A DNA stretch of 64,000 bases from a virus (lineage: Duplodnaviria > Caudoviricetes), in IMG/VR virus record IMGVR_UViG_3300031088_000758; one strand, given 5' to 3'. The position numbers and the translations under genes were made by a program. A model generated the notes under the pieces. The model worked only from the letters and a program-made list of their open reading frames with translations. It searched no databases and had not been told where the DNA came from. This document shows, piece by piece, positions 4,058 to 50,904 of this stretch (positions within the stretch are counted from its first letter, which is position 1; every line of letters begins with the position of its first letter).

Positions 4058-4399
4058 TTAAAACCTTGTTGTCTTTACAAACTCTAATATTCTTATTGTA
4101 CCTACTGGCTTGCCATAGTAACAATATAGAATAAAATCATGATTAAGTTGTAAATTATAAGTATGCAAATTTTTTATCAAAGTTGTTGCTGATACTTTGA
4201 TCTCTTTGTTGCTTTCTTCAAGTATTTTGAATTTAGCTATGCCTATACAGCCCCCGTCAAATACTTCAGAAAGTTCGGGTTTAAACATTAAAGCAATAAA
4301 TCCTTGAAATGATCCAGGTTTGTCAGCCTCAATAACCTCATCTCTCCATAGTTCAGTATTATCTATTTTTATTAATCCAATGAAATCAGAATATATCAT
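4058..4399 (-). CDS. Hypothetical protein, putative immunity-array member
   Basis: FIGLIKIDNTELW shared with adjacent ORF (FIGLIKVENNFLW); downstream of Rhs toxin. Confidence 0.6.
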   Translation of the reverse strand: MIYSDFIGLIKIDNTELWRDEVIEADKPGSFQGFIALMFKPELSEVFDGGCIGIAKFKILEESNKEIKVSATTLIKNLHTYNLQLNHDFILYCYYGKPVGTIRILEFVKTTRF

Positions 4400-4803
4400 T
4401 AAGTGGTCTCCAATAAGGTTATTTCGCCAATGTATAAACTTGTATCGAAAAAGATCAAATTATAAGGGTCATTCAGTCGGCATTCTGGTATTTCAGAGAA
4501 ACTTTTAACACACCAAGTTCCCCCTATAATTCCGTATGTATCTTGCTCCGTGTCAAGACCAGTTATTTCTCCCATAATAGGGCATAAAGTATGATCAAAA
4601 ATAATTCTTAAATGCCGCGCTTCTTTTTTAATACATTCTTCTGTCCAGAGAAAATTATTTTCAACTTTGATTAAACCTATGAAGTTTGCGCCTTTGCTGT
4701 ATCTTTCTCTTCTGTTTTGTAAAATCTGTTCTCGTGTAACCACTGCTTTTCTCCAATATTGTATATTTATTCTTTGTATATCGTTAAGAATGAAGAAACA
4801 CAT
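4399..4803 (-). CDS. Hypothetical protein, paralog of 4058-4399
   Basis: Shared FIGLIK motif and C-terminal G[TE]IxxLE; TAATG stop/start coupling; true start may be GTG near 4742. Confidence 0.6.
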   Translation of the reverse strand: MCFFILNDIQRINIQYWRKAVVTREQILQNRRERYSKGANFIGLIKVENNFLWTEECIKKEARHLRIIFDHTLCPIMGEITGLDTEQDTYGIIGGTWCVKSFSEIPECRLNDPYNLIFFDTSLYIGEITLLETT

Positions 4804-4849
4804 ATCTTATTTAATGTTACGTACATATTGGTGATTTTGATAAACAATT

Positions 4850-5140
4850 TTACATTTGATTTCCTAGTAATTCAAGTGTAAATTCCCAATTGAATTTATT
4901 ATCTGAAACTTCTAAATTGTCAACGTTTAAATCTCCACCAAAAAACAGTGGTTGAAGGATAGTAGCTACATGAGTTCTGCTAATAAAATTACCCGGTTCT
5001 TTTATCCACTCATCAAAAACATCTTTTTCTAATAATACTTGATTATCTTCTGTCAGAATAATATCATGCAAAAAATCGGAATTACCAGCAGCATTATAAA
5101 CACTTCTATAGTATTAAAGAACAATATTCTTGATCTCCAA
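4850..5140 (-). pseudogene. Probable small gene with in-frame premature stop
   Basis: AGGAG RBS, TTG at 5140, in-frame TAA at 5114-5116, then open through ORF 4850-5071. Confidence 0.35.
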
Positions 5141-5198
5141 AACATTTAATCTCCTTATACAATTTTACAATGAGAAGTTAATAGTAAGATTAAAAATT

Positions 5199-5588
5199 TT
5201 ATTTAATATGTAATTTTATATAATCTTTAGCGTCGTTTATCCAAAAATCCATTACTATATTCTTCGCTTTAGTGATGTTAAAATAATAATCATCATCTAA
5301 GCTTTCTAACCATCCCACCCGAAGTATACCACTCTTGTCGGTATCCATATTGATAGAACCAAGAAAGATAAAATTATTAATTGTTTCATCTTTTTCATTT
5401 AGCAACTCAATTGTTATTTCTTCGCCATCTTCATAGGATACTCTTGATTCTATACCTATTAAACCATCCATGAAAGTAATTCCATATGAATCAAAATTGA
5501 TATATTCTTTTTCGTCACAGTCATAATCGCAAGAGAACCATAATGTTCCTTCATCGCTATGTAGTTTTATAGTTTGATTATTATTCAT
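5199..5588 (-). CDS. Small acidic protein, candidate immunity protein
   Basis: 129 aa, acidic, ATGA overlap with upstream gene in the Rhs operon. Confidence 0.65.
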   Translation of the reverse strand: MNNNQTIKLHSDEGTLWFSCDYDCDEKEYINFDSYGITFMDGLIGIESRVSYEDGEEITIELLNEKDETINNFIFLGSINMDTDKSGILRVGWLESLDDDYYFNITKAKNIVMDFWINDAKDYIKLHIK

Positions 5589-6667
5589 TTTGACTCATTC
5601 CAGTAAACAAAGATTTCATCCTCTACAACTTTTAATGATATGTCAACTTTCGAATTTGACAAAATATATTTTGAATTTTCAATATTTATTGTTCCTTGTA
5701 TTTTCGATATCGCTAACATATTGCTTTCTTCCGCATCTAAAACATTTCTGTGCAATAAGTTTACCCTGTCTATATCACGCAATATAGAAATCTTATCTTT
5801 ATCTATTTTATATAATAAGTTCTGAAAAGCAATTGTACTTTCTGTGTTAATCTTTATCAGATGATTGAGTGGCTTTTTCTTCAATACAATAACTAAATCT
5901 TTCTTTTTGTTCTCCAGGTACTTTTTAAAAAATAAATTGTTGTAAAAATAATTCGGAAAGCTAAAATTTTTTTCAAGCTTATTTTCTATAATAGTAATTA
6001 AAAATAGGTATTCTATGTAAGCAGAACTTGAAATATTGTTTATCAAAAACTCATTGCTAAATGGTAAATTATTGTTTAACAATCTTCTTGATATTGTTTT
6101 TTGCTTTAATTCGGGGAGAGTTTGATTATTTAAGCTACAGGTTTTTAGCAGCTCAAAAAAACCTATATTGTCATTCCACAAATTAAACAATAACATACTA
6201 TTCTGTATCAAATTATTTATTTTAGAGTCATTCATAGCTGACAGGAATTTAAAAAATAGATCATATTCAAAATTAGAATAAGGGAAAAAATCGTTATTTA
6301 ATATTTTATAAATATTTACATAGTTATTGTTGCTACTTGTATTCTCCAAGAATTCAAACTCTTTTCGTAAAGTGTTAGGAATACTAGCAATAGCGGGGTC
6401 TAAAATGTTATGCTTTATTAAAAACACCCTAATATTTTGATCATATTTTAAATCTTGATTGTGATAAATTATTTCTTTAATTCGTTTGCTTTCTTCCTCT
6501 GAAAAGCCAGTGTTATTAAATTCATTAGATATTGCAAACCACCGTAGATAAAATTCGTCGTTATTCTTAATCTTTTCGTAAATTTCTTTTTCTGTTGCTT
6601 GATACCTAAAAAAATCATTAAGTTTTTCTGTTTTTTCTCCGTCAAATAACACGGTGTTTTTAGTCAT
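5585..6667 (-). CDS. Hypothetical protein directly downstream of Rhs toxin (candidate cognate immunity)
   Basis: 360 aa, very AT-rich, GGGAG RBS, 21 bp after the Rhs stop. Confidence 0.7.
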   Translation of the reverse strand: MTKNTVLFDGEKTEKLNDFFRYQATEKEIYEKIKNNDEFYLRWFAISNEFNNTGFSEEESKRIKEIIYHNQDLKYDQNIRVFLIKHNILDPAIASIPNTLRKEFEFLENTSSNNNYVNIYKILNNDFFPYSNFEYDLFFKFLSAMNDSKINNLIQNSMLLFNLWNDNIGFFELLKTCSLNNQTLPELKQKTISRRLLNNNLPFSNEFLINNISSSAYIEYLFLITIIENKLEKNFSFPNYFYNNLFFKKYLENKKKDLVIVLKKKPLNHLIKINTESTIAFQNLLYKIDKDKISILRDIDRVNLLHRNVLDAEESNMLAISKIQGTINIENSKYILSNSKVDISLKVVEDEIFVYWNESK

Positions 6668-16351: not shown

Positions 16352-17104
16352 ATGGAAATAGAAACAATCTCACTAAAAAACCTCAGTGAAATCATGACAA
16401 ATTATCGTCCTGTCTATCCTTCACCTTACACTTGGGAATCAACAATAGCATACATGTTAAAAGAAGACACTGAACGAATTGTTGTTGAACAGCTTGTTGA
16501 AGAATTAAAAAATAGTGAACAAGGAACATTCAGAGAGCCAGTACGTCTAGATAAACAAGAAATAAGCCCTGATGAAATAAAAGAAGATGATTATTACACA
16601 GACATCTTGAATAATGGATATATTCGCACTGAGAATGACGGAAAGACATATTCATATACAATCGGTGACGGAACACATAGAATAGTTGCTGCTTACCTTT
16701 ACGGAGCCGAAGAAATTCTTACCACTAATAATTCTCTCAGTGAAGACATGTCATACTTCATAGTCACTTCTGTAAAATTTGCTGAAAAAGAATTAAATGA
16801 TGAAGAACAAGATCTTTTAGTGTCTTGTTCAAGATCATTAAAAATTTCCGAAAAGCTGTGGATTACAAGCAGTCTATCCACACAGGATATTAGAAGCACT
16901 TTTATTTATTGGGATATTTACTCACCCGAAATAGACTTAAACCTGATCACCAGCAAAGTTCAAAAAACAGTTCAGATTTTCATGCCGAATGTTGAATTTT
17001 CAGTAGATACTTTTCTTGAACCATGGGATGATGAGGAAGAAAAAGAAGAAGTTTGGGATAATTTTAACATTGAAAACAGCAGTGATGAACAACAAAAAGC
17101 TTGA
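16352..17104 (+). CDS. ParB/sulfiredoxin N-terminal-domain protein
   Basis: FREPV..IGDGTHRIVAAY resembles the ParB/Srx GxxR motif; no HTH evident. Confidence 0.65.
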   Translation: MEIETISLKNLSEIMTNYRPVYPSPYTWESTIAYMLKEDTERIVVEQLVEELKNSEQGTFREPVRLDKQEISPDEIKEDDYYTDILNNGYIRTENDGKTYSYTIGDGTHRIVAAYLYGAEEILTTNNSLSEDMSYFIVTSVKFAEKELNDEEQDLLVSCSRSLKISEKLWITSSLSTQDIRSTFIYWDIYSPEIDLNLITSKVQKTVQIFMPNVEFSVDTFLEPWDDEEEKEEVWDNFNIENSSDEQQKA

Positions 17105-17112
17105 ACAGATTG

Positions 17113-17760
17113 TCAATTATTGTTGTTACTGTTGCTTAAAGGTTTCATCACAGGGATATCAGCATCAGGTAGCTCAAGCAAATCTAAAGTTGTAATCACT
17201 TTTCCTACAATAAGTGGATATTTTTTGACAAATTTCTTTTTTCCTGTAAGGCTAAGAATTTGCTGTGCAAAACGTCTAGCATCATAGTGTCTTACATCAT
17301 TAACAGGATTAACATAAGTTTCACCTGTCATAAGATCTTGATATTGAGCCTTATTTTCTGAAACATGACCAATAGATTCTAATATTCTTTCCAAAAGATA
17401 AATCACAGGTCTATTATCCCAAGCATCTAACAGGTTCGTCATATCCATTAACGAAGTTTCGATCTCATCTTCAGAAACAGCAATTTCAAAAAGATTATTC
17501 ATCATTTCTTCGTTAAGTTGTTTGGAAAGCAATTGTTTTCCTTCACGACGACGCTCACGATGATACGAGTGATCAAAATCAGTTTCAATGTACCATAAAT
17601 GATTACCAGATGCTTTGATGGACTCGCCATTTTCTAACTCTATTTCAAACATTCGTTCAGGCACATGCTGATCATATGCTTCCCTCACTACAACTTCTTC
17701 ACCGTTAGGGCCACGTATGATATCACCTGGAACCAAATCACCAAATCTTTTTAAAGTCAT
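17113..17760 (-). CDS. Free-standing intein (Hint) middle fragment with ~130-aa insertion
   Basis: MTLKRFGDLVPGDIIRGPNGEEVVV..MFEIELENGESIKASGNHLW aligns with the CpaF intein (STMGEIKVGDEVFDRFGNVVKV..VYEVEFNTGEKVYCDAEHNW); lacks block A and blocks F/G; GGAAGG RBS before ATG 17760. Confidence 0.85.
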   Translation of the reverse strand: MTLKRFGDLVPGDIIRGPNGEEVVVREAYDQHVPERMFEIELENGESIKASGNHLWYIETDFDHSYHRERRREGKQLLSKQLNEEMMNNLFEIAVSEDEIETSLMDMTNLLDAWDNRPVIYLLERILESIGHVSENKAQYQDLMTGETYVNPVNDVRHYDARRFAQQILSLTGKKKFVKKYPLIVGKVITTLDLLELPDADIPVMKPLSNSNNNN

Positions 17761-17827
17761 AAAATTCTTACCTTCCAAAACATCTTCTATTATTCATGTT
17801 GTATACTTTATATATCTTATCACTAAC

Positions 17828-18673
17828 TTACTCGCCAGGATCCAAAGTCTGTAAAAACTTTTCGTACAGCTCATCCTCTTCTTTAAACCTGTTCTCCACT
17901 TCAAAATGAAAATCTGATGGTGTGAATTTCAAAGGGTGAAGTATACATATCTTAGGAAGCGTTTTATCAAACAATGATCCAATGACTTTTTGTTGACGAC
18001 TATAATAACTATCTTCTAAATCAGAATATAAATTATGTAGATAATCATCATTCTCGGATCCAAGATAAGCAGCCCAATCCAACTGTGTATGTAATTCGTC
18101 ATTAAATGTTCTACAAGAAGCTGTAATAGGAACAAAGCATATACGCTCCCAATTGCTGTCTACTATTAAGTTTTCTACTTTTTTAGATAATTCTTGATCT
18201 TCTAAATCATGAACTAATTGTTCATTCAAGTAAATGAGAATAAACTGAAGTTTTCTATCACTAGCTTCTATTTGACCTTTATCAATATTTTTTTTACGAA
18301 TGCTTTCTCTGAAATCAAGAACATCATCAACAAAAGTTTCAAAAGTATTCAAATAATTATGATAATTAAAGACTTTGTAATTATTCTCCAGTATTTCACC
18401 TAAATTTAATAATTCACCTGATAAGTCGTATAAGTCAATAGCTACACTTTCCTGGAATTTTTCTAATTGTTTCGCAAAATTTTCAAGAAAAATATCTCGT
18501 TGTGAAGTCAGGTTTCCATAAAAGAATGCCATGTTATTGTGACTGACAGCATCCCAGGCAACTTTTTTTCGATAAGTTCTAAAAAATTCACAGCGAACAG
18601 AATTTTTAAAAATAAGATTGCCAGCTTCAAACCCTTTGTCAAGCCTTAGTCTGTCCCAATCAAAATATTTCAT
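17828..18673 (-). CDS. Hypothetical protein, possibly a degenerate FtsK/P-loop fold
   Basis: Spacing of AFFYGNLTSQRD, IDLYDLSGE, FILIYLNE, RICFVPITAS parallels FtsK motifs, but catalytic residues are absent. Confidence 0.45.
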   Translation of the reverse strand: MKYFDWDRLRLDKGFEAGNLIFKNSVRCEFFRTYRKKVAWDAVSHNNMAFFYGNLTSQRDIFLENFAKQLEKFQESVAIDLYDLSGELLNLGEILENNYKVFNYHNYLNTFETFVDDVLDFRESIRKKNIDKGQIEASDRKLQFILIYLNEQLVHDLEDQELSKKVENLIVDSNWERICFVPITASCRTFNDELHTQLDWAAYLGSENDDYLHNLYSDLEDSYYSRQQKVIGSLFDKTLPKICILHPLKFTPSDFHFEVENRFKEEDELYEKFLQTLDPGE

Positions 18674-19169
18674 TTCTCTCCAACTTCATAAACTTAAACA
18701 TTCATAGACAAATATCTTATTCGTATGATTTTATCAAGGATAAAACATATTGAACTAACGTTATTACTGAACGTGCTAAAAGAGTATTATTAAAACAGAA
18801 ACATTTAGTGCTTAAAAACGATTCTACAACATACCTCAAATAACACTGATATACAGCCTTTTATTTAGGTTCTTTTTTGGCATTTTTCAAAGATTTTTTC
18901 AAAAACACCTTTTCTGATATGGGGATCAGTATAAAGTAGAAAATGCTGTACAAATCCTTTCTGACGTTTAACTCTTGTATTAAGTTTTTGATTAAATTTT
19001 GTTCTATCTATGTCGTAATCAACAGCAAGTTTTAAGAAGAACTGATTTTTATCTTCAAAATACAATGAGTTTGTATATTTTTCATTTTGATATGATATGT
19101 AATAAGAAAAATGTTTCAACTGTTTTTCTTGTTATTAAAGTGGATACAGAAACTGAAGCGAGGTTCATT

Positions 19170-20336
19170 ATGACAATATTAGAACATCCCAAAACAACAG
19201 AAACCACAGTTAAGGAGAATGTCGGAATACCCGTAGTAAAAAGACAAAAACTTACGAGAGATTGTCTTAAAGAATTTACTAAACTCAGCAATAAGCCCGT
19301 AGTCAGCATTTATATGGATACTTATAAGTTCGGTGAGGAACAATTATTAAATGCTAAACAGCTGGGAAGAGTAATATCTCACGTAGAAAAAGAACTCTTA
19401 AACGCAGACTTATCAACTGAAGAAGTTGAAGAGTACATTAAACCATTAAAAGATTTAGTCAATAACGAATCAGAATGGCTACATATGGATGAAGGTTTAG
19501 CTATATTTATTTCTGCTGAAAGAGCTGTTAGCTACACATTACATCATGACGTTGATTTCTCATGGACAGTTGATAAAAAACCTCGTTTAGAGCCTCTTAT
19601 CAAAGAATTAGGTTTAGACAAAAATTTCCTAATTCTTTCTGTCTCGCAAGATGATGTAAGATTATTAGAAGCTGATGAGCAAACTTTCAAAAAACTTGAT
19701 CTAGTAGATATACCTGGACGCATGAAAGATGTGGTAGCAGAAAACAACCTTGAAAAAACAAAACCTACACGAATAGACAATGGTGCTGGTTTTGCGGTTA
19801 GCTTTGGGCATGATAAAAGCATTATTCAAGATCAACAAATATACAGATTTTTAAAGGCAATTGCCGACAATCTTAAAACAGCTTTGCCTTTGAATGATAA
19901 TCGTCCAATTGTTATTCTTTGCCCACCTAATTATATGTCAGTTTTCCGTGAACATCATGCTCTTCAACACACAAGATTAGCATTCGTACACGGTGCTTGG
20001 TCAAGAGCTGCTGAGCATGAATTGTATGAAGCAGCTTTACCGGCGTTCAACGATGAATTAGACAATACAGAAACAATTGTTGAAAACATTATTGATAAGG
20101 GTGAGAGTCAAAAGCTTATTGAAAGAAGCACATCTGCTATTCATGAACTATCTTCTGAAATTGGAAGAATTGAAACATTGATTATTAAACCCATCAGAGT
20201 CAATGGAAGCCCAAAGAACGAAGATGAAATCACAATAGTTGATGAAATTTTAATTAACATTGTTGAAGGAAATGGGCAAATCATTTCTTATGAACTAGAT
20301 GATGTATTTCCCATGACAGCAACACTAAGATACTGA
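19170..20336 (+). CDS. Bacterial archaeo-eukaryotic release factor (baeRF) family protein
   Basis: PVVSIYMDT, W.HMDEGLAIFIS, FLILSVSQDDVRLLEA, GRIETLII, C-terminal ATLRY; GAGG RBS before ATG 19170. Confidence 0.8.
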   Translation: MTILEHPKTTETTVKENVGIPVVKRQKLTRDCLKEFTKLSNKPVVSIYMDTYKFGEEQLLNAKQLGRVISHVEKELLNADLSTEEVEEYIKPLKDLVNNESEWLHMDEGLAIFISAERAVSYTLHHDVDFSWTVDKKPRLEPLIKELGLDKNFLILSVSQDDVRLLEADEQTFKKLDLVDIPGRMKDVVAENNLEKTKPTRIDNGAGFAVSFGHDKSIIQDQQIYRFLKAIADNLKTALPLNDNRPIVILCPPNYMSVFREHHALQHTRLAFVHGAWSRAAEHELYEAALPAFNDELDNTETIVENIIDKGESQKLIERSTSAIHELSSEIGRIETLIIKPIRVNGSPKNEDEITIVDEILINIVEGNGQIISYELDDVFPMTATLRY

Positions 20337-20361
20337 TTTTTAAAAATAATTAAAATCAAAC

Positions 20362-20412
20362 ATAAATGTAGGGCCACAACAATATACTAAACTGTTGTGG
20401 CCCTACATTTAT
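20362..20412. terminator. Bidirectional terminator between convergent genes
   Basis: Perfect 20-bp inverted repeat ATAAATGTAGGGCCACAACA / TGTTGTGGCCCTACATTTAT. Confidence 0.85.
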
Positions 20413-20428
20413 TAAATTATATAATTAA

Positions 20429-21733
20429 TCAAGATCTCCATCCATAATCATAAAAATCTTCATCGCCTTTGACCTCGTTCTTTTCGATGATAACGTTAAA
20501 ATCAGAAGGTTTTTTAAATTTATCTCTATTGTCATCTAACCATTTCTCAGAGACATTTAAAGCCAGCTTACGATTAGACGTAAAATCAGGATGATAACGT
20601 GATAAATGATAGGCAAAAGCCTCTTCTTTGTATGCTAAATGCTTGTCTTTTGTTTCCTGCAGGTTTTTCTCCGCTTTAGCTATCTTTTCCTCAGAATCAG
20701 GTAAGTTTTTGAGAGCATTCTCTTTTTTAGAGATAGCTCTAGTCAAACCTTCGATTCTTTTTGAATACGTTGAAGATACACTATTAATGTCTTCATCACT
20801 AGAATTCAATTTATTAGCAAACTCAACAGCAAAACCTTCTCTTTTACTTTTAAGCATCTCAACTTCTTGCGCAACTTGTTTTTTCTTGTTTTTAGAAGAT
20901 TTAGCTTCGTCAAGAATGTATCTGGCATGTTTGACATCACCATCAGTTATTCTTTCATTTTTGTAATTATTACCGCTTTTATGAGCTTGTTTAGGAAGAA
21001 TAACCCAATGCGGAAGCTTCTCATCGGAAACTAATTTCATTTTATTATCAAGCAATTGTTTAACTTTAAAGTCCTTCAACTCTTTAATTTCTTTATCAGA
21101 AAGAGAATACCTTTCATAATCTGCTGAAATTGGAATTTCATCACCAGTTTCATCATCTACAACCCAATCATACGTTCTATATTCTCCACTGCTAATTTTT
21201 TCTCTATCTGTCAAGTCTAAAGTTTTCGTTTCTTGACTGTCATCATACTTAGTTCTTATGAATTCTACATATGGAGTGTCAGTGTTATCCTTGTTCACAA
21301 TAACGATTTCATATCCAGAATTAGGATATTGATTCTCAAGTTTTTCACGAAGATTCACAGCATAAGAAACATCATCATATTGCTTTATTAGATTATCACG
21401 AATATCTTGAACTGTTTCGCCCCGAAGATATCCCTCATTTAACATTTTTTCATCATAAGAATCATTAATAACATTATTTCTTAAAGAATCTAAATCTACT
21501 TTATCAACTATTGTGTCAGATTCAGAAAGATCCATTTTCATATTAGATTGTTTGCGTTTTTTCAAAGATTTCTGAGGTTTAGAAACATTCTCTTCAATAA
21601 TCTTTTCAGCATAACGTACAGCTTCCAAAGGATTATCAAAATGGTTGCTTTCACCAAATTGACATTCCTTAATCTTAGCAGTACATTTGCCCACATAACC
21701 TGTCTCTGGATTAACATGTAATTTTTGACTCAT
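20429..21733 (-). CDS. Hypothetical coiled-coil protein with N-terminal HxNPxTG..C..C..NH motif
   Basis: MSQKLHVNPETGYVGKCTAKIKECQFGESNHF; GAGGTG RBS. Confidence 0.85.
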   Translation of the reverse strand: MSQKLHVNPETGYVGKCTAKIKECQFGESNHFDNPLEAVRYAEKIIEENVSKPQKSLKKRKQSNMKMDLSESDTIVDKVDLDSLRNNVINDSYDEKMLNEGYLRGETVQDIRDNLIKQYDDVSYAVNLREKLENQYPNSGYEIVIVNKDNTDTPYVEFIRTKYDDSQETKTLDLTDREKISSGEYRTYDWVVDDETGDEIPISADYERYSLSDKEIKELKDFKVKQLLDNKMKLVSDEKLPHWVILPKQAHKSGNNYKNERITDGDVKHARYILDEAKSSKNKKKQVAQEVEMLKSKREGFAVEFANKLNSSDEDINSVSSTYSKRIEGLTRAISKKENALKNLPDSEEKIAKAEKNLQETKDKHLAYKEEAFAYHLSRYHPDFTSNRKLALNVSEKWLDDNRDKFKKPSDFNVIIEKNEVKGDEDFYDYGWRS

Positions 21734-21793
21734 AATGCAGCACCTCATTAGTTAATTTTATTAAATCCTTTTATCTCATTGTTTTCTAACTGT

Positions 21794-23095
21794 TTAAATT
21801 TTCACTCTAGCCAAAGCAAACATATCTAAACTATCTTTATTTTTTTTCGCCCATTGAGCTACATTAAATGAATTGATCCCTAAAGCATCCGCTCTTTGAT
21901 CCAACGCTGAAACAATGCTATCAAACTCATATTCTCTGTCATCTTCATTAGCAGACTCAGCAAAAAATTTTAAAGTATTTATATCATACTTAATTTTAGA
22001 TTCTTCTTTAATTCGTTCAATCCAATTATTCTTCGCATCAATATTACGTAAATTCTGTTCTTTCTGATCCGCAAGCCAAGATTGAAACTCCTCATCATCA
22101 ACATTAGAAATGACCTCATCAACATTTTTATTCAAACGTTCATATTTTCTGATCTCAGCCTTTTTCTCATTAATAGAAAACTCTTCTTCAGCAGCATATT
22201 TATCATAATTCTTTTTATAATCTTCAATTCTAGCTTGAGCACCTCGTGAATCTGAAGCCGAAATCTTGTAGCTAAAACTATCCTCTTTTAAAGGTAAAGC
22301 CACCCAATCAGGTAAAGAATCGTTCTCTAAAATCTTCCGTGAATTTTCTAATCCTTTCATAGCTACAAAAGAAGCATTATTTTTTTCAAACAATTCTGAA
22401 TTTTCAACGGAAGCTTCTAAAACAACAAACATGTTATTCTTGCTATCATTATTCACCTGAAGAACATTAGACAAATATGAATCACCATCACCAAATTTGA
22501 TAGGATTAAAACCATTAGGCAAATTAGAAAAAATTTCTTCATAATGACTTTGATCCGTTCTAATAAACAGATGCCTCTTATTCTTTTTCAATCTTTTATC
22601 TAACAAATCACTAAACGATTGAGTCTTATAAAAAGCGTCCCTCGTAAGCATGTTCTTATTGCTAGCTTCTGTAAAAGTTGTAACATTCACATACTTATCA
22701 GTATCTATTTCATGTGTAAAGATATAATAGTATTTTGCTGAAGAATGCTTTTCATAACCATTATCCAAAAGAAAGTCGTCTACTGTATATTCTTGAGCAT
22801 TCTTGTATGTTTCAACTTCTGTTCTGAGCTTAGTTAAAGCTTCACCAAAAGTTTTTGACCTATATTTTTTATCAATCTTGCTGGACATAGGAATTTTTTG
22901 ATCTTCCCACAAAGCATTTCTTTTAAGAACTTTACCAGAAGATGATTCTACCATACGTTTTTCGTAGGCATTGTGAGCGTCAAATTGGTTATCAAAATGA
23001 TTATCTTCACCAAACCTACATTCACGAATATTTGCAGTACATTTACTGACATCACCAGTATCAGGATTAAGATGAATTTTTTGTGAATTAACCAT
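21794..23095 (-). CDS. Hypothetical coiled-coil protein with N-terminal HxNPxTG..C..C..NH motif
   Basis: MVNSQKIHLNPDTGDVSKCTANIRECRFGEDNHF; also shares LP[HD]WV.LP with the neighbouring ORF. Confidence 0.85.
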   Translation of the reverse strand: MVNSQKIHLNPDTGDVSKCTANIRECRFGEDNHFDNQFDAHNAYEKRMVESSSGKVLKRNALWEDQKIPMSSKIDKKYRSKTFGEALTKLRTEVETYKNAQEYTVDDFLLDNGYEKHSSAKYYYIFTHEIDTDKYVNVTTFTEASNKNMLTRDAFYKTQSFSDLLDKRLKKNKRHLFIRTDQSHYEEIFSNLPNGFNPIKFGDGDSYLSNVLQVNNDSKNNMFVVLEASVENSELFEKNNASFVAMKGLENSRKILENDSLPDWVALPLKEDSFSYKISASDSRGAQARIEDYKKNYDKYAAEEEFSINEKKAEIRKYERLNKNVDEVISNVDDEEFQSWLADQKEQNLRNIDAKNNWIERIKEESKIKYDINTLKFFAESANEDDREYEFDSIVSALDQRADALGINSFNVAQWAKKNKDSLDMFALARVKI

Positions 23096-23148
23096 GAATA
23101 GATATACCTCATTACATGTTGATCGAATATAGTTTTTTCTAAAAAAGA

Positions 23149-23313
23149 TTAGAACTCTCTAACCCATTTAATCTTACCACTATCGTAGATTCTATACAAC
23201 CCATTTAAATCAGCTAATTCACGTTCAGTCAAACCTTCTTTATACCTTAAATTAGGGTTATTCTTAAAACGTTCTTTTCTCAATACACCGTTTTTGTTAA
23301 AATAGCTGTTTTT
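23149..23313 (-). pseudogene. Out-of-frame C-terminal remnant of the endonuclease gene
   Basis: -1 frame reads KNSYFNKNGVLRKERFKNNPNLRYKEGLTERELADLNGLYRIYDSGKIKWVREF*, resembling the TE.E..G..RIYD.G..KW terminus of phage Hef-like endonucleases. Confidence 0.65.
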
Positions 23314-24515
23314 TTACCAGTTGTAAAATATTTTTCCAAAGATTTAATTATTAGATTCGAGCTTTCATACCAATCATATTCCCATACGAATAACAACTCG
23401 ATATTTTTCTCTTTGCACATTAGAACTTTCATAGTATGATACTCATCTGAAGTCATATTATGGTTAGGAATCAAAAATTTATCTGAGTGCCAATAATTGC
23501 CGTTAAATTCAATTGCAACATTAATTGAGGGGATGTAAATATCTAATTGGTAGGGAGCAATTACTTTCCAATTATTAAACTCTAATGACTTTTCAGGTAA
23601 TAGGATTTCTATTTCTTTTTGGAATTCTTTTTCAACTCTTGAAACACCTTTTAATCTGTCTTCTGATAAGAATGGATCTAAATGTCTTCCGAGCCATCGT
23701 ACTGTAAAAAAATCCTCACTAATTGATGCGTTTAATTCTTGAATAAGCTTTTGCTTTGTAAGATTCTTATTTTCTTCGTAATATTTAGCCAAATCTTCTC
23801 TGCTGTCAAAACCAGCAGTTTTCAACTTTTCAAGGTTCTTTATTAATTCACTACGTGATTTCTTGCCTTGTTGATAAGCAATACTGTCCATAGGCTTGAC
23901 AATGTTTAAATGTTTCAAAAGTCTATATGTAGAAGTATCAGAAACATTGTATCCGATTTCTCTGGAAATTATTTTTTTAAAATCAGCGAAAGATCTATTT
24001 TTATCTAAGTATTCAGTTGAAATTTTTTCTTTATTAAAACCTTTTGCTAACAAAATTTCTATAATTTCTTTGTAATTTTTAATTTCTTTTTTGTCAATCT
24101 TGAAGTGTTCCAAAATTAGATTACAATAATAGACTGACACTCCAGTAGCATAAGACAATCCAGCTAGAGAAGATTCCTGATAAATTTTAGCAATTTCGTT
24201 TGAAGAAAATTTTTGTTCAACATTTTTCAAAACAAGAGAGAATTCTTCGTCCGCTTTTACTTTTTTTGCCATTGTTCCAAGCTTCTTTTTAGATTCTCTG
24301 ATAAGATTTGGATCTCTTTCGGATAATTGTAAGTAGTTCATCAACTTTGTAATCCCTCTACGGTCAGTGTGTAAGGACGTTGAAGAACTTATATTAGTAG
24401 CAAGGATTTCTTTACTGAGTGAGGGGTCTATTAAATAATTTTGAAAAAGGTTTTTAATGTATTCTTTCTCAACTTCATTTAAATTATCGTATAAGATGGT
24501 TAATTTTACAGACAT
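23280..24515 (-). CDS. Free-standing Vsr/Hef-like (PD-(D/E)xK-related) homing endonuclease, truncated
   Basis: SRVEKE..YQLDIYIPSINVAIEFNGNYWHS..K..CKEKNIELLFVWEYDW; helical N-terminal region. Confidence 0.8.
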   Translation of the reverse strand: MSVKLTILYDNLNEVEKEYIKNLFQNYLIDPSLSKEILATNISSSTSLHTDRRGITKLMNYLQLSERDPNLIRESKKKLGTMAKKVKADEEFSLVLKNVEQKFSSNEIAKIYQESSLAGLSYATGVSVYYCNLILEHFKIDKKEIKNYKEIIEILLAKGFNKEKISTEYLDKNRSFADFKKIISREIGYNVSDTSTYRLLKHLNIVKPMDSIAYQQGKKSRSELIKNLEKLKTAGFDSREDLAKYYEENKNLTKQKLIQELNASISEDFFTVRWLGRHLDPFLSEDRLKGVSRVEKEFQKEIEILLPEKSLEFNNWKVIAPYQLDIYIPSINVAIEFNGNYWHSDKFLIPNHNMTSDEYHTMKVLMCKEKNIELLFVWEYDWYESSNLIIKSLEKYFTTGKKTAILTKTVY

Positions 24516-24609
24516 ATTATCTCCTTTGGGTTAACTATCTTATTATATCAACAAAAAACCAAAGGTATTTGTTAAAAAAGAAAAAATTTTAAAACAAATT
24601 AAAGTTGAT

Positions 24610-26070
24610 TTAAGCTGCTTCTTTAATCACTTCTACTAAGGTGTTTATTGCGAGAGATTTTCCTCCACCCGTGCCTCCACCCACGAAACAATTGCTGGTC
24701 ACAAGACCTTTTTTACTGCTTTTGTCTGGTAAAATGACAAAGTTATGAGTTTTTTCAACCTCACCATCATAAACATCAGCGAATCCTGCATTTTTTACGT
24801 TAATGACTTTACGATCAGTTTGAGAGAAACCTTTAACATAAAGATTTAAAAGATCTTGCGCTTCAACATAAGTTCCATAAGATAATAGCCACTTATGATC
24901 TGGAGTACATCTAACTTGTGAACCATCATCAAAAGTAAGCTCCACAATCTGAGAGTTACTTCGTGTCTTCTTCGTTCCAAACATTTTGTTCCAAACGAAT
25001 TCGAAATTACTGTTCATAGATTTAACCATAATTGGTTTTTTAAACTCAGCAATTTCTTTTATAGATAAAGGTCCGTTTTCTGTCAAAACCAATGTTTCAC
25101 CTGTTATACACATCGGACTTGTTGTTATTTCAGGACCAACTTTTAATCCAGCTTTGCTTCCCTCTTTTGATTGCAATCCAGAAAGATCAAACCCTAGAAT
25201 ATTTTCCATTTTTCCGCTTTCTGGGTTTTGCATCTCGACACCGTTCTCCACGCCTAACGCAATTGGGAAAAAAGACCAGGCAATTCCGGGGGAAAGCACA
25301 TACCGTTCGCTCCAAGGTGCCATGGTGGGTAGTGGTGGTACTGCGTAAAATGTTGCTAAACCTTCTTCGTAATCCCATCCTGGTCTTTTATTCTCTACGT
25401 CATCAAAAGGAACCCATGTTGTTTCTGTTCCAAAAACTTGATTAAATTGACGAAGGAACCCTTCTTCGCCTTCTGCACCGAATGTAGTGGGTATCTCGAA
25501 TTGTACTTTTTGTGGTTTTAGTGGAGCAGACCATTCTAAAATTTTAATCACATTAGCTGGATTATCTTGATGTTCTATGCTTATGCCAAGTTTTGAATTT
25601 GCGATTTCGAACATTTTTTTCATCAATCTTTTTTGAGCTTCGATCATATCCTTAGAAGCTGTTATAGCAAATCCAGCTGCGAAGAAGAAAACAATAAAAC
25701 CTGCTGCTATTACATAGAAGTTCATTAAATAAGTTCCAACACCTACGGTTAGTAATCCTGCTAACCATATAATAAGAAGCATCTGACGGTTTTGTATTTT
25801 ACTTGTTTGTGGCTCACCGCTCTTGTTCTTTTTCTTTTTGCCACTGAGGCTGAAATCTCTTTTATCTTTCATTGTATAAGATATGCGTTCTTTCCAGATA
25901 GGCCATAATAGGTTAGGTTTATACCTTGCTCTGTCTGGTCCACTCATCTTTTGCATTTTACGGTCTATGACAAGTTTTTTATGAATGACTGGAATTATTC
26001 TAAAAAGAATTGGCATGACTATTAGGTAAACACCCATCATGATAAGCGGTATTTGAAGTGTTTCCATCAT
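24610..26070 (-). CDS. N-terminal half of a membrane-anchored FtsK/SpoIIIE-like (coupling) ATPase; has a mini-intein and ends in a split-intein N-fragment
   Basis: TM segments; spliced sequence TSPM|CFVGGGTGGGK is Walker A; ORF ends 15 aa later with no Walker B. Confidence 0.85.
   Translation of the reverse strand: MMETLQIPLIMMGVYLIVMPILFRIIPVIHKKLVIDRKMQKMSGPDRARYKPNLLWPIWKERISYTMKDKRDFSLSGKKKKNKSGEPQTSKIQNRQMLLIIWLAGLLTVGVGTYLMNFYVIAAGFIVFFFAAGFAITASKDMIEAQKRLMKKMFEIANSKLGISIEHQDNPANVIKILEWSAPLKPQKVQFEIPTTFGAEGEEGFLRQFNQVFGTETTWVPFDDVENKRPGWDYEEGLATFYAVPPLPTMAPWSERYVLSPGIAWSFFPIALGVENGVEMQNPESGKMENILGFDLSGLQSKEGSKAGLKVGPEITTSPMCITGETLVLTENGPLSIKEIAEFKKPIMVKSMNSNFEFVWNKMFGTKKTRSNSQIVELTFDDGSQVRCTPDHKWLLSYGTYVEAQDLLNLYVKGFSQTDRKVINVKNAGFADVYDGEVEKTHNFVILPDKSSKKGLVTSNCFVGGGTGGGKSLAINTLVEVIKEAA
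24613..24657 (-). mobile_element. 15-aa split intein N-fragment (SLAINTLVEVIKEAA)
   Basis: Block-A-like S-L-x-x-x-T-x-V directly after the Walker A Lys, same site and Ser1 as the CpaF intein (GK|SVTLDTKI), followed by a stop. Confidence 0.75.
24691..25110 (-). mobile_element. 140-aa mini-intein without endonuclease
   Basis: CITGETLVLT (block A), RCTPDHKW (block B), VYDGEVEKTHNFV (block F), VTSN|C (block G, penultimate Ser). Confidence 0.93.
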
Positions 26071-27109: not shown

Positions 27110-27637
27110 TCAGAATGGGTCATCAAGATCGAAATCGTCAAGATCATCTAAATCGTCATTTGTTTTCTTGACAGCTGGCTTTTTAGGAGCTGGCTTGCTT
27201 TCAGATCGTGATGGAGCACTGTTTTTGTTTCCATTAGAGGACTTACGTGCTTCACGGTCTGAGTGTGCTGGTGCGAAGGTAAGTTCAATACCAATGTAAT
27301 CAACATTGACATAATCTTTTGCTGGAATAACACTTCCGTCATCCTTGGTGAACTCAGGCTTTGTTCTTACGCGACCAATGACAATTACTCGGTCTCCTCG
27401 TTTGACATTGCCATCACTATCTTTGAAAGATGCTTCAATGTTTTCTGCTTGACGATCCCAGGCGGTACAATTAACCCATGTAGTTTCGCCATCTTCCCAG
27501 TTGTCGCCGTTTCGAACTCGGGGAGTCACAGCAACGCTGAAGTCTACTACTGCACGGTTGTCTTTTCCAACACGGCGTAGTTCGTAAACATTACCAATGT
27601 TACCAATTACTGTTTGTTCATTTTTTACTGAAGCCAT
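27110..27637 (-). CDS. ssb: Single-stranded DNA-binding protein
   Basis: TVIGN..FSVAVTPR..WEDGETTWVNCTAWDRQAEN..GDRVIVIGR; acidic tail DDPF. Confidence 0.95.
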   Translation of the reverse strand: MASVKNEQTVIGNIGNVYELRRVGKDNRAVVDFSVAVTPRVRNGDNWEDGETTWVNCTAWDRQAENIEASFKDSDGNVKRGDRVIVIGRVRTKPEFTKDDGSVIPAKDYVNVDYIGIELTFAPAHSDREARKSSNGNKNSAPSRSESKPAPKKPAVKKTNDDLDDLDDFDLDDPF

Positions 27638-48517: not shown

Positions 48518-50904
48518 ATACTTCTTCTTCCTTGTGAGTTGTTAAATGGATTAGTAGGTAATCTTCGAGGATTATTCACCGGAATACCAGGAGAACCAAT
48601 TTCACGAAGATTGCTCTCATCAGCATCAGTCCTAATATGACCAATCGAAGGAACCTTCTTTCGTGTTTCGCTTTTCAAGAATTCATTGACATCTTGACCA
48701 CGAATTTTACAATACTCTCTAAGGCTATCAGACATGTTTCCTTCTTTGTAAAAACTGTCAGTAGCTCTATCATAAAGATAAAGTGGCTGTGTTGATATCT
48801 GAGCGTCATCATTATTGCTCAAAGTTGTAGTTATTTCTTCAATATGGCTCACTCTGTGCTTTCCGCCAGGAAGAATTATTAACTGCACAATTAATTTAAC
48901 AGCAGAGGCAATGTCTGTATTGATAGATCGAATAGGAACCCCAGGTCTTGCTTCAGATGTAAAACCTGTCATCTTTCTCAAACATGCAGAAGGTGTTTCA
49001 GCGTGGATAGTAGTCATTCCACCTTCCATTCCTGAATTAGCAGCAATTAAATATCCTCCAAATTCTTTACCTCTTACTTCTCCAATAATCAGCCTATCAC
49101 ATCTGTTACGCATAAACTGAGCAACTACCCAATCCAATGTAGCAACTTCATTAGGATTCATACCAGGAGACCAAGGTGTGGAGTTTAGATACGTTGTATT
49201 AGGTAAATCAAATTTTAGTTCGGGAGTGTCCTCGGCAATTCCTAAACGTGTTTCCTTGGGAATGAATTTACCAAGAGCCTCAAGCATTGTAGTGTTATGA
49301 GTAGGTATAAAAGATTCTGTGATCAAATAAGTTGAATCAACTCCATCTACTGTTATACATGCCATTTCTTCACGTCTGTCTGTGATAGAAATAGATTTAA
49401 TGATTCTGTTTCTATCACGTGGTTTTTGATTTTCAACTAATTTAATATATTTCTCATACTTATCTTTTTTCCTAGGCAACATAGATAAAGTAATGCCACC
49501 AGACACATATAATCGCCATATAGGTTGATAATATTCATCAGTTGTTTTCTCTCGTTTTTTGAGATAAGGTTCTTGACTGATGGAAGTTCTTAGCCCCAAG
49601 CTTGAAGAAATTTCTCTTACATCATTTATTAAATCAAGATTTGAATTACAGAAAATAAACAAACGTTTATGGACAGTTCCATCACTATCCATAAGACCTG
49701 CTAAAAGGAGTCTACGTGCTTCAACAGAAGATTTTTTGTAAATTTCTGGAATGCTTTTTTTACTTCCTTTTTCTTGCTTTCCTACAAAGATGTCTAATTT
49801 TTGTAGATTCTTTTGCATATCCTTGATATCAAACTTCCAGCGTCTACCATTGCTTCCAACAGGCTCAAGTTTTGAATCAATTCCAAGTTGTTCAAAGATT
49901 TTGACGTATTCTTTTCTGTCATCAGGATGGGCAGTCAGTCGTACAGAATTTGAATCTCCGTCTCCAAGCCATAATCCCAAGACGTAAGGATGAATAGGAA
50001 GTTCCTCTATATCCAAAGAGTCAAAGTATTCGACAGGTTTTTCTAAAATTGGAACATTGAAAGATCTTATCCCATAGTGCTTAATGTTTTTGGACTCTTG
50101 AAGCATTTCATCTGTTGTTTTAACTACATGTAAAGGGTTATCTTTCAATCTTGAATCAGAAACATATTTATCAAATTCATTAATTTTTCTGCTTTTTTGC
50201 GTGCTTACTAACCAATTATGCTCAGCATCACAATATACTTTTTCACCCGTGTTGAATTCGACTTCATATACTTGTCTAGCTGGTTGTGGGAATTTATGAG
50301 TGACTTTAACTACGTTGCCAAAACGATCAAAAACCTCATCACCAACTTTAATCTCACCCATTGTGGACCATCCTGATGGTGTAGGTATTTTGGTGTCTAG
50401 TGTCACGCTTTTACCAGCTCCGGTGGCACCTGAAATTACCATTGTGATGTTAGCTTCAACAGCCATCCTAAGGAATTTACGCATCTCATCACTCATGGAA
50501 CCAGCTGCAGCAATAGCATCTAAACTTAGCAAAGATGTAGTCTTCTTAGCAATAGTAACTTGAGGATAATCAGAAGCAGGTGGAAGTACAATATGACAAC
50601 GACCTCTAACTTCTACTTCTCCTACTTCGTATTCTAATCTTCCTTCGAAAATAAAGCTCTCTCGACTAAAAACGTTCTGACTTTTTACAAAAGGAACCAA
50701 CCCGTGTTGTATACCATTAAAATATGTTTCTTCAGTCATACGCGGAATATTGCTAATAGCTATTCTTTTTCCTGCTCGCTTCATGAAAAACTGATCAGGT
50801 CCATTAGCTGCAATCTCTGAAACTTTTGGATCTAAAAGTAGATTGAAAATAACATTCCACTCAGGGGAACGAGTTATTTGATAATTTTGCTCCAAGATAA
50901 TCAA
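48514..50904 (-). CDS. CpaF/TadA/VirB11-family secretion ATPase with intein
   Basis: VSEIAANGP, ISGATGAGK|TTML, IAEDTPEL, RCDRLIIGEVRG, GGMTTIHA. Confidence 0.93.
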   Translation of the reverse strand: MIILEQNYQITRSPEWNVIFNLLLDPKVSEIAANGPDQFFMKRAGKRIAISNIPRMTEETYFNGIQHGLVPFVKSQNVFSRESFIFEGRLEYEVGEVEVRGRCHIVLPPASDYPQVTIAKKTTSLLSLDAIAAAGSMSDEMRKFLRMAVEANITMVISGATGAGKSVTLDTKIPTPSGWSTMGEIKVGDEVFDRFGNVVKVTHKFPQPARQVYEVEFNTGEKVYCDAEHNWLVSTQKSRKINEFDKYVSDSRLKDNPLHVVKTTDEMLQESKNIKHYGIRSFNVPILEKPVEYFDSLDIEELPIHPYVLGLWLGDGDSNSVRLTAHPDDRKEYVKIFEQLGIDSKLEPVGSNGRRWKFDIKDMQKNLQKLDIFVGKQEKGSKKSIPEIYKKSSVEARRLLLAGLMDSDGTVHKRLFIFCNSNLDLINDVREISSSLGLRTSISQEPYLKKREKTTDEYYQPIWRLYVSGGITLSMLPRKKDKYEKYIKLVENQKPRDRNRIIKSISITDRREEMACITVDGVDSTYLITESFIPTHNTTMLEALGKFIPKETRLGIAEDTPELKFDLPNTTYLNSTPWSPGMNPNEVATLDWVVAQFMRNRCDRLIIGEVRGKEFGGYLIAANSGMEGGMTTIHAETPSACLRKMTGFTSEARPGVPIRSINTDIASAVKLIVQLIILPGGKHRVSHIEEITTTLSNNDDAQISTQPLYLYDRATDSFYKEGNMSDSLREYCKIRGQDVNEFLKSETRKKVPSIGHIRTDADESNLREIGSPGIPVNNPRRLPTNPFNNSQGRRSI
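49294..50409 (-). mobile_element. 372-aa intein with LAGLIDADG homing endonuclease, inserted in Walker A
   Basis: SVTLDTKIPTPSGW..CDAEHNW..LGLWLGDG..LAGLMDSDG..CITVD..IPTHN|T. Confidence 0.95.

Follow-up and report, generated by a model that had tools for sequence, protein, structure and literature searches.

What completes a motor ATPase whose gene ends shortly after the Walker A lysine? The question was raised by open reading frame (ORF) 24610-26070 of the viral record IMGVR_UViG_3300031088_000758 (Caudoviricetes), of which a stretch of 64,000 nucleotides, hereafter the window, was analysed. The source contig is 727,572 bp long, the GC content of the window is about 34%, and all window genes relevant here are on the minus strand. 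The ORF encodes the N-terminal part of an FtsK/TcpA-like translocase ATPase. To judge from the arrangement of the genes, their homology and collinearity, and the patterns of conservation and co-occurrence, a three-piece split intein with a class 3 signature probably completes the Walker A motif of this ATPase, which is encoded in pieces. The three genes are referred to below as FtsK-N, the M-intein gene and the IntC (C-intein) gene.

The N-terminal piece ends with an 11-residue intein-like tail

ORF 24610-26070 was divided as follows.

25111-26070, minus strand: N-extein of the FtsK/TcpA-like ATPase (residues 1-320), with N-terminal membrane helices, then a soluble domain that is conserved, then the beginning of the motor (..LGFDLSG..ITTSPM).
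24691-25110, minus strand: contiguous cis mini-intein of 140 aa (CITGETL...THNFV...VTSN↓C; arrows mark splice junctions), recognized by Pfam Intein_splicing (E-value 4e-7) and by alignment with intein-less homologs.
24658-24690, minus strand: micro-extein CFVGGGTGGGK, 11 aa, equal to Walker A up to its lysine.
24625-24657, minus strand: predicted N-intein (IntN) SLAINTLVEVI, 11 aa, the block-A-like first strand of the class 3 split intein, delimited by conservation profile and alignment.
24610-24624, minus strand: four non-conserved residues (KEAA) and the TAA stop.

The 486-aa product ended with ...CFVGGGTGGGK↓SLAINTLVEVIKEAA before the TAA stop. An earlier reading of the letters alone (the original prediction) had noticed this stop 15 residues after the Walker A lysine, and the early stop proved to be a family trait. 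At least 160 homologs of FtsK-N were found (319-396 aa without the mini-intein and 426-487 aa with it), and 117 of the 120 examined ended 11-60 aa (median 17) past the lysine. ESM Atlas neighbours of an intein-less homolog, by features and by structure, belonged to PF01580 FtsK_SpoIIIE, a family that FtsK-N itself matched only up to about position 61. No match to FtsK-N was obtained by tblastn against plasmid and phage collections. A group I or group II intron as the cause of the stop was considered and rejected, as no Rfam family and no tRNA were found in the window.

The 117 tails were conserved at position 1 (S 64%, A 35%), L2 (86%), D5 (68%), T6 (93%), V/I8 (97%) and V10 (74%), with a hydrophobic residue at position 11. 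No conservation was seen from position 12 on, and the shortest tails had exactly 11 residues. The consensus [S/A]L[S/A][V/I]DT.V.V. matched the intein block A pattern ([C/S/A]-h-x-x-D/G-T-x-h), and the 11 residues aligned without gaps to residues 1-11 of related class 3 inteins. The likeness to block A that had been claimed for all 15 residues therefore stood for this profile but the length did not: since conservation stops at residue 11 and KEAA is variable, the functional IntN is taken to be 11 aa long. With proline at position 7 in 19% of the homologs and alanine in place of the P-loop serine in 35%, the tail is unlike a helix following Walker A.

A comparator is present in the same window.

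49294-50409, minus strand: contiguous intein with a class 3 signature and a LAGLIDADG endonuclease (S1, HNW, ACITVD, PTHN↓T) in the P-loop of a CpaF/VirB11-like ATPase.

Its sequence, GATGAGK↓SVTLDTKIPTP ... PTHN↓T, places Ser1 directly after the P-loop lysine as originally described, and its block A (SVTLDTKIPTP) is patterned like the tail.

The mini-intein was carried by 19 of the 117 homologs and was inserted just before strand beta1 and the P-loop. It ends with ..VTSN↓C, having a penultimate serine and not histidine, 11 residues upstream of the split-intein junction, so that Walker A is reduced to a micro-extein of 11 residues.

The middle piece is probably a free-standing M-intein

The M-intein gene and its two neighbours are arranged as follows.

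17581-17760, minus strand: M-intein residues 1-60, Hint N-lobe strands equivalent to intein residues ~12-70, with block B (S-G-N-H-L-W) among them.
17221-17580, minus strand: M-intein residues 61-180, a conserved helical insertion in the AlphaFold2 (AF2) model, with weak fold matches to MarR-like winged helix-turn-helix (wHTH) domains, generic helical proteins and a region of an intein-bearing DnaB.
17113-17220, minus strand: M-intein residues 181-215 and stop, the last N-lobe strand or strands (..PLIVGKVITTLDLL..DIPV..), ending at the canonical split or endonuclease-insertion site.
17828-18673, minus strand: p281, a pseudo-ATPase of 281 aa with an FtsK/EssC/TcpA fold (AF2 and Foldseek).
16352-17104, plus strand: convergent ORF immediately 3' of the M-intein gene.

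The 215-aa M-intein ORF is preceded by GGAAGG 10 nt upstream of its ATG, a plausible ribosome-binding site, in agreement with the original prediction. The family to which it belonged comprised 69 stand-alone proteins, 203-314 aa long with a median of 212. The family profile matched the solved inteins MchDnaB-1, gp41-1 and Msm DnaB with E-values of 2e-7 to 1e-5, MchDnaB-1 being the best. M-intein residues 5-57 were aligned to intein residues 15-67; the protein thus lacks the first ~11 residues of an intein. The motif SGNH[L/M]WY, which contains block B (Thr/Ser-x-x-His), was found in 69/69 members. Blocks A, F and G and an extein were absent, the convergent ORF follows directly, and 39 of the 69 proteins had no cysteine. 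The missing blocks F and G, the missing extein and the convergent neighbour accord with what had been read from the single sequence.

The AF2 model had a predicted local distance difference test score (pLDDT) of 87.8 and consisted of N-terminal strands, a helical domain at ~61-180 and a final strand. With VIA-align, residues ~36-60 and ~183-207 were superimposed on the N-lobes of Npu DnaE, gp41-1, NrdJ-1, PI-PfuI, KlbA, VidaL (6vgw) and others (44-52 residues, root-mean-square deviation 1.7-2.6 A, Z 3.2-4.9, modest values for half a domain). The match stopped at the natural split site, e.g., at Npu DnaE residues 54-99. The identification as an M-intein accordingly leans on the sequence evidence, the structural Z values being modest.

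The ratio of nonsynonymous to synonymous substitution rates (dN/dS) was 0.04-0.14 for the M-intein ORF against two close relatives and 0.07 for FtsK-N; dS was near saturation in this comparison, and the direction is clear. Such values indicate that the M-intein is maintained and not decaying. A profile scan of GTDB species genomes yielded one locus only (L005), in a genome without FtsK-N. Other matches of the profile in the records of relatives lay within large ORFs with contiguous inteins.

The p281 gene was always located directly upstream of the M-intein gene, with overlapping stop and start codons in three loci (L003, L007 and L008), and had a dN/dS of 0.07. The AF2 model of p281 (pLDDT 96.6) matched EssC D2/D3, EccC, TcpA, FtsK and HerA best in Foldseek (E-values 1e-7 to 1e-5). 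The family (about 130 representatives) lacked Walker A (..LFYG.L.SQ.. instead) and the Walker B acids and shared a conserved C-terminal FL.SLDDG. Pfam gave no match for p281, for most of the neighbouring genes or for the M-intein, apart from one weak sub-threshold match of the latter. We considered p281 as the C-extein or the carrier of IntC and rejected it: no conserved Asn followed by a nucleophile was found, and the FtsK fold is complete with its own beta1 and alpha1. Profile comparison of p281 with the FtsK-N family and with the C-extein family detected no similarity. Longer p281 homologs were also examined as possible intein carriers and rejected; their additions are insertions.

The C-terminal piece was found in related records

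No ORF combining IntC with an ATPase was present in the window, as the original prediction had stated; tblastn with the IntC gene of relatives gave nothing below an E-value of 6. Regular-expression scans for blocks F and G in the window and the first loci also found no match; the first pattern was too strict and missed known inteins too. The gene was recovered by a Pfam FtsK_SpoIIIE search of whole related records, with relatives of FtsK-N located in IMG/VR contigs of 89-438 kb. The original prediction had proposed looking in related elements for blocks F and G fused to an FtsK domain without Walker A, and this is what was found: the four larger records (G002, G003, G005 and G006) each contained an ORF of 351-382 aa that matched FtsK_SpoIIIE positions 53-219 only, i.e., everything after Walker A.

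The ORF started with M[K/R]IK....P..[S/A]RCI.VDS..RLF..GG......[V/I/L][T/S]HN↓SV.QRNI..., a 40-aa IntC. It was followed by FtsK helix alpha1 (SV.QRNI), ..WRFLGIDLK.VEL.., Walker B (..VMVDE.GELL..) and ..HLV.ATQRPD... A PHROG family annotated as 'FtsK/SpoIIIE-like' matched the protein from residue 42 on (E-value 2e-34). Relatives of the gene were found in 58 metagenomic and 9 IMG/VR loci. The block F Cys, [T/S]HN and Ser+1 were kept in all ~27 full-length intact IntC sequences (distinct tblastn hits), and R/K-C-I/F, with Cys at block F position 4, was present in every IntC sequence recovered. IntC consisted of blocks F and G only, without block B; the partner is thus not a complete C-intein of the kind that would make an ordinary two-piece split. 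Genes for endonucleases flank this locus as well.

In the window's own genome, a sequence index pointed to a look-alike of the IntC gene (16 of 88 words) 120,771 bases past the window end, a distance that is also put at about 150 kb. Among contigs of the source sample, which is from the phyllosphere, the IntC gene of a relative retrieved the relative itself and a 77-nt piece (82% alike) on a 50-kb contig. This piece, flanked by ..RYAEMESLGV and SGVK↓ALVSS, represents a second homolog in the sample that is not assignable to the window's genome. In seven loci (L061-L066 and L100) a degenerate second extein start (..VTGNN..FVYQ.IM.P..WEFLGIDLKKVE..) without His-Asn↓Ser was situated ~0.7 kb 5' of the IntC gene; it could represent a duplicate in decay or one more fragment.

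The third gene bears directly on whether the tail is an intein strand at all. It could instead be the native helix after the P-loop, with p281 completing the motor non-covalently and ORF 17113-17760 being an intein-derived protein of unrelated role, e.g., DNA binding via its helical domain. A helix does follow GKS in FtsK, and the window tail (SLAIN...) has Asn at position 5, presumably like FtsK. Furthermore, p281 has a complete FtsK-like fold and lies in the same operon, and the M-intein insertion bears a weak likeness to wHTH domains. This explanation is nevertheless quite improbable: the tail is strand-like, tolerates Pro7 and Ala1 at the frequencies given above and ends after 11 residues; p281 possesses its own beta1, loop and alpha1, lacks the Walker B acids and has a profile unlike either partner family; and the true alpha1 (SV.QRNI.F) stands behind IntC in the third gene.

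The three pieces are collinear and carry a class 3 signature

When the 11-residue tail and the M-intein were concatenated, the M-intein Met fell at intein position 12 with no junction gap relative to the two-piece intein of a relative and the CpaF intein; the middle ORF thus begins where the tail ends, as first noticed in the window. In the same comparison, IntC matched the C-terminal blocks of both inteins (RCIEVDS against YCISVDS and ACITVDG; THN↓S against THN↓T). The exteins are complementary: FtsK-N runs to Walker A, the IntC gene covers PF01580 positions 53-219, and the junction restores GGGTGGGK-S. As encoded, Walker A is on the first piece and Walker B on the IntC gene, and no single polypeptide holds the complete motor before splicing; a protein with both motifs would arise only via splicing. 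Nor is this a two-piece split intein: of its three genes the middle one encodes no extein, and block B is missing from IntC.

Class 3 inteins are defined by a Trp/Cys/Thr triplet (Tori et al.; PMC2807308), and three WCT inteins with Ser1 or Cys1 are known from the same work. The split intein showed the corresponding traits: the block B His is followed two residues later by Trp, block F has Cys at position 4, block G has Thr/Ser at position 5, and the +1 residue is Ser. The Trp, at block B position 12 (H-[L/M]-W), was present in 69/69 members of the M-intein family and was not kept in the divergent records G007-G009. Given this signature and the non-nucleophilic Ala at position 1 of 35% of the tails, Ser1 is probably not the nucleophile; on these motifs, the block F Cys of the C piece is the likelier one.

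The same residues help to decide whether the pieces splice or only hold together. Split-intein fragments bind each other very tightly, and Hint fragments could link the M protein, perhaps accompanied by p281, to the N and C parts in a non-covalent translocase, with no ligation. The variable position 1 (S or A) would fit such docking, and p281 together with the helical insertion suggests additional protein-protein functions. Against it, residues needed only for the chemistry are kept: the block B His and Trp in 69/69 proteins, and the block F Cys, His-Asn and Ser+1 in the ~27 intact IntC sequences. In addition, the P-loop Lys and Ser would, if unligated, remain more than 250 aa of Hint domain apart, leaving no normal nucleotide site. 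We consider docking without splicing unlikely.

A further alternative is a Hedgehog-like device in which the tail and the M-intein activate the Lys-Ser bond for cleavage or transfer and IntC serves a different partner. Class 3 inteins can cleave the N-terminal junction without terminal nucleophiles (PMC2807308), and the extra conserved domain of the M-intein could bind a substrate. Without IntC, however, no nucleophile is available, as 39/69 M-inteins are free of Cys and 35% of tails lack Ser1. The complete records contained no other partner for IntC, and the extein halves are exactly complementary. A cleavage device is therefore very improbable.

The three genes occur together

A tail-bearing FtsK-N, an M-intein and an IntC gene were found together in all ten sufficiently long related records: the IMG/VR records G002, G003, G005, G006, G007, G008, G009 and G011, a 697,643-bp contig (loci L001, L006 and L084) and a 436,870-bp contig (loci L007 and L065). 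Two incomplete fragments had one piece each, namely FtsK-N in G004 (31% complete) and IntC in G010 (65% complete). Downstream of the M-intein, the C piece was reached after 16 kb in one relative, and in the others it was ~58-116 kb away. In the records of relatives, neither another FtsK N-part nor a full-length N-intein that could serve IntC was found. The original prediction had named decayed middle-ORF homologs that do not accompany the tail as an outcome speaking against it; the ten records and the low dN/dS values show the opposite. With the recovered IntC gene and its lack of block B, three of the four adverse outcomes named in that prediction were examined computationally, and none was observed.

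Among IMG/VR records G002-G009, contigs of 300-440 kb carry the system; terminal repeats were seen in some of them, and in one, a palindromic assembly, the locus occurs twice. The related contigs are partly filed in IMG/VR as proviruses or viruses, and G002 belongs to a longer metagenome contig (681,631 bp).

The arrangement is common to clades in which FtsK-N is ~40-55% identical. In the clade of G007-G009 the order was FtsK-N, p281-like gene, M-intein-like gene, with no endonuclease in between, and in the window's clade an endonuclease and other variable genes were inserted after FtsK-N. The inserted genes of the window are listed below.

23280-24515, minus strand: free-standing homing-endonuclease gene of 411 aa (..LDIYIPSINVAIEFNGNYWHSD..), PHROG 3339 'homing endonuclease' (E-value 8e-25).
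18865-23283, mixed strands: variable inserted region with a 44-aa ORF, paralogs of 433 aa and 439 aa, a baeRF-family gene on the plus strand and an 84-aa ORF.

The endonuclease gene is separated from the stop of ORF 24610-26070 by 95 nt. Paralogous endonuclease genes occupied the equivalent position in relatives, and a comparison of the window's endonuclease with solved structures gave no match. The gene content of the variable region differed among relatives, and the region was absent from the clade of G007-G009.

Such surroundings might suggest that a contiguous intein-bearing gene was shattered by homing endonucleases and that the pieces are relics on the way to loss. Many free-standing endonuclease genes around both loci and the highly variable gene content between the pieces are in favour of decay. 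It is contradicted by ORFs that are intact and uniform in length across dozens to more than 100 lineages, by dN/dS of 0.04-0.14 with conserved catalytic residues, and by an arrangement common to such divergent clades. Decay is largely refuted, and we give it hardly any credence.

Proposed assembly of the ATPase

For the three-piece split intein, the physical assembly, the chemistry and any regulatory role were extrapolated from these observations. The first piece (24610-26070) would supply the membrane anchor, the motor up to GGGTGGGK and the 11-aa N-intein strand. The second (17113-17760), the extein-less M-intein, would complete the Hint N-lobe and bring in the His and Trp of block B. The third, outside the window, would add the ~40-aa C-intein (block F Cys, [T/S]HN) and, behind it, Ser+1 and what is left of the motor (alpha1, Walker B and ATQRP). 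The three fragments are predicted to fold into one Hint horseshoe, in which the block F Cys would attack the Lys-Ser/Ala1 bond activated by block B of the M-intein. The N-extein would then be passed to Ser+1, and Asn cyclisation and an O-to-N shift would give ...GGGTGGGK-SV.QRN..., a normal GK[S] P-loop. In the window's lineage, the cis mini-intein 11 residues upstream would have to splice too.

Relatives may need one more step. In those with the 697,643-bp and 436,870-bp contigs, the IntC gene was cut again after Walker B and encoded IntC, an extein of ~104 aa and a second N-intein (IntN2). IntN2 was ~116 aa long, with Ala1, ..TLIPTP.G.. and ..GSEH.W.., and was followed by an endonuclease gene; the next gene encoded a second C-intein (IntC2, ..YCISVDS..PTHN↓T) and the remaining motor. 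The loci are as follows.

L084, 6001-6783: second split intein.
L065, 3974-4795 and 5893-6741: second split intein.

By its motifs, IntN2/IntC2 is an ordinary two-piece class 3 split intein, and it would join a further extein after Walker B.

Several points weigh against this scheme. For the window's own genome, the evidence for the IntC gene is a word-index match. Among public sequencing runs, no RNA data set was listed as containing the sequence. Kinetics should disfavour an assembly from three bodies. The scheme assigns no part to the ~120-aa insertion that the M-intein contains, nor to p281, the pseudo-ATPase encoded between the pieces. Ser1 is present in 64% of the tails, so that a class 1 first step is possible for those. 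Finally, the divergent clade of G007-G009 has no block B Trp and has a longer tail.

Since it is covalently bound to neither extein, the M-intein could be released after each reaction and could mature many ATPases. We suggest, with considerable doubt, that it acts as a trans-acting, possibly reusable and regulated splicing factor and that its insertion or p281 could gate translocase assembly. The idea of an AND gate on DNA transfer, put forward in the original prediction, is purely conjectural.

Other genes of the window and neighbouring loci

Three features upstream of the endonuclease gene followed one another on the minus strand: the SSB gene, a gene for a 268-aa membrane protein and the 486-aa ORF of FtsK-N.

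27110-27637, minus strand: SSB.

Elsewhere the window encodes TrbL/VirB6-like giant proteins with an M23 peptidase, the CpaF/VirB11-like ATPase with its LAGLIDADG intein, an SMC/Rad50-like ATPase, RadA, HU, a sigma-factor-like protein, an Rhs toxin and a lysozyme.

The baeRF (bacterial archaeo-eukaryotic release factor) gene of the variable insert belongs to family 3 (18999-20336, plus strand), and the same gene was found at the same place in the close relative L104. The 433-aa and 439-aa paralogs have an N-terminal Cys motif in common. This ~35-aa module, H[L/I]NP.TG.V..C.A....C.FG...HF, heads otherwise unrelated variable-region proteins near the fractured gene, including a protein with an RNA-ligase domain, and may be a common Cys-rich tag of mobile cassette genes. 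Its carriers are listed below.

Window, 21794-23095 and 20429-21748, minus strand.
L001, 14411-15184.
L006, 6346-7446 and 7555-8763.
L007, 7944-9068.
L003, from 19896.

In L006, on the contig of L001, a 543-aa FtsK/HerA-like ATPase with an intact Walker A (..GKTNSGKT..) was encoded between FtsK-N and p281 (4129-5760); it has no counterpart in the window.

Comparison with known inteins and significance

The original engineered three-piece intein work reportedly concerned a DnaB intein. The proposed pieces resemble the engineered three-piece forms of Ssp/Rma DnaB, Npu DnaE and gp41-1, in which an N-intein of ~11 aa (cut at the 'S1' site) is combined with a C-intein of ~35-40 aa and with an M-intein that has no extein and extends as far as the canonical split site (bioRxiv 10.1101/2023.01.30.526203). 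Such inteins, split at the same two sites, do splice, and all three fragments are needed for trans-splicing; according to the same preprint, natural inteins made of more than two fragments had yet to be shown (bioRxiv 10.1101/2023.01.30.526203). Our literature search, which did not cover all journals, likewise found three-piece forms only as engineered ones and no natural three-piece intein. The engineered inteins are laboratory products of class 1, whereas the pieces described here are natural, separate and conserved genes with a class 3 signature, and the M piece contains an insertion of ~120 aa.

Atypical natural split inteins such as AceL-TerL and VidaL are also broken near the N terminus, with an N-intein of ~11-25 aa, and the M-intein model matched VidaL (6vgw) among other structures. 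Their partner is one long C-intein with blocks B, F and G fused to the C-extein. Here, in contrast, the partner itself is split into an extein-less protein and a 40-aa IntC.

Fractured genes (Dassa et al. 2009, PMC2677866) are similar in that an intein interrupts the gene of an enzyme acting on nucleic acids, the stop of the IntN part is followed by a free-standing endonuclease gene and the setting is metagenomic, phage-like or that of a small genome. They consist of two pieces broken at the canonical site, compact, with halves 1-2 kb apart (PMC2677866). In the present case there are three genes, the first break comes after residue 11, the C piece is 16 to ~116 kb off in relatives, and p281 stands between the pieces.

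With the class 3 inteins MP-Be DnaB and MchDnaB-1 (the latter assigned to this class in PMC7664689), the split intein shares the Trp/Cys/Thr triplet, Ser+1, frequent Ala1 and insertion in an ATPase P-loop (PMC2807308); it differs from known class 3 inteins by Ser1 in 64% of N-inteins and by its three pieces. Class 3 inteins are nearly all contiguous: a survey found no split one among 1701, and the first (two-piece, AceL NrdHF) was reported in 2020 (PMC7891396).

Natural inteins are known as one-gene or two-gene forms, more fragmented ones are a stated open question, and three-piece inteins have been built for synthetic AND gates and for labelling. If the proposed reading is correct, the present system would be a conserved natural three-piece example in dozens of lineages, with all three genes identified. 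It would add split members to the rare class 3 and offer a natural pair of an 11-aa N-intein and a 40-aa C-intein, possibly of use in peptide ligation. Should the M-intein be reusable or regulated, it would be the first cofactor of protein splicing in nature that is multi-turnover or conditional. The system would also show to what extent homing endonucleases can break up a motor gene that looks essential and still not destroy it: in this lineage the gene would comprise as many as three exteins together with two split inteins and one cis intein.

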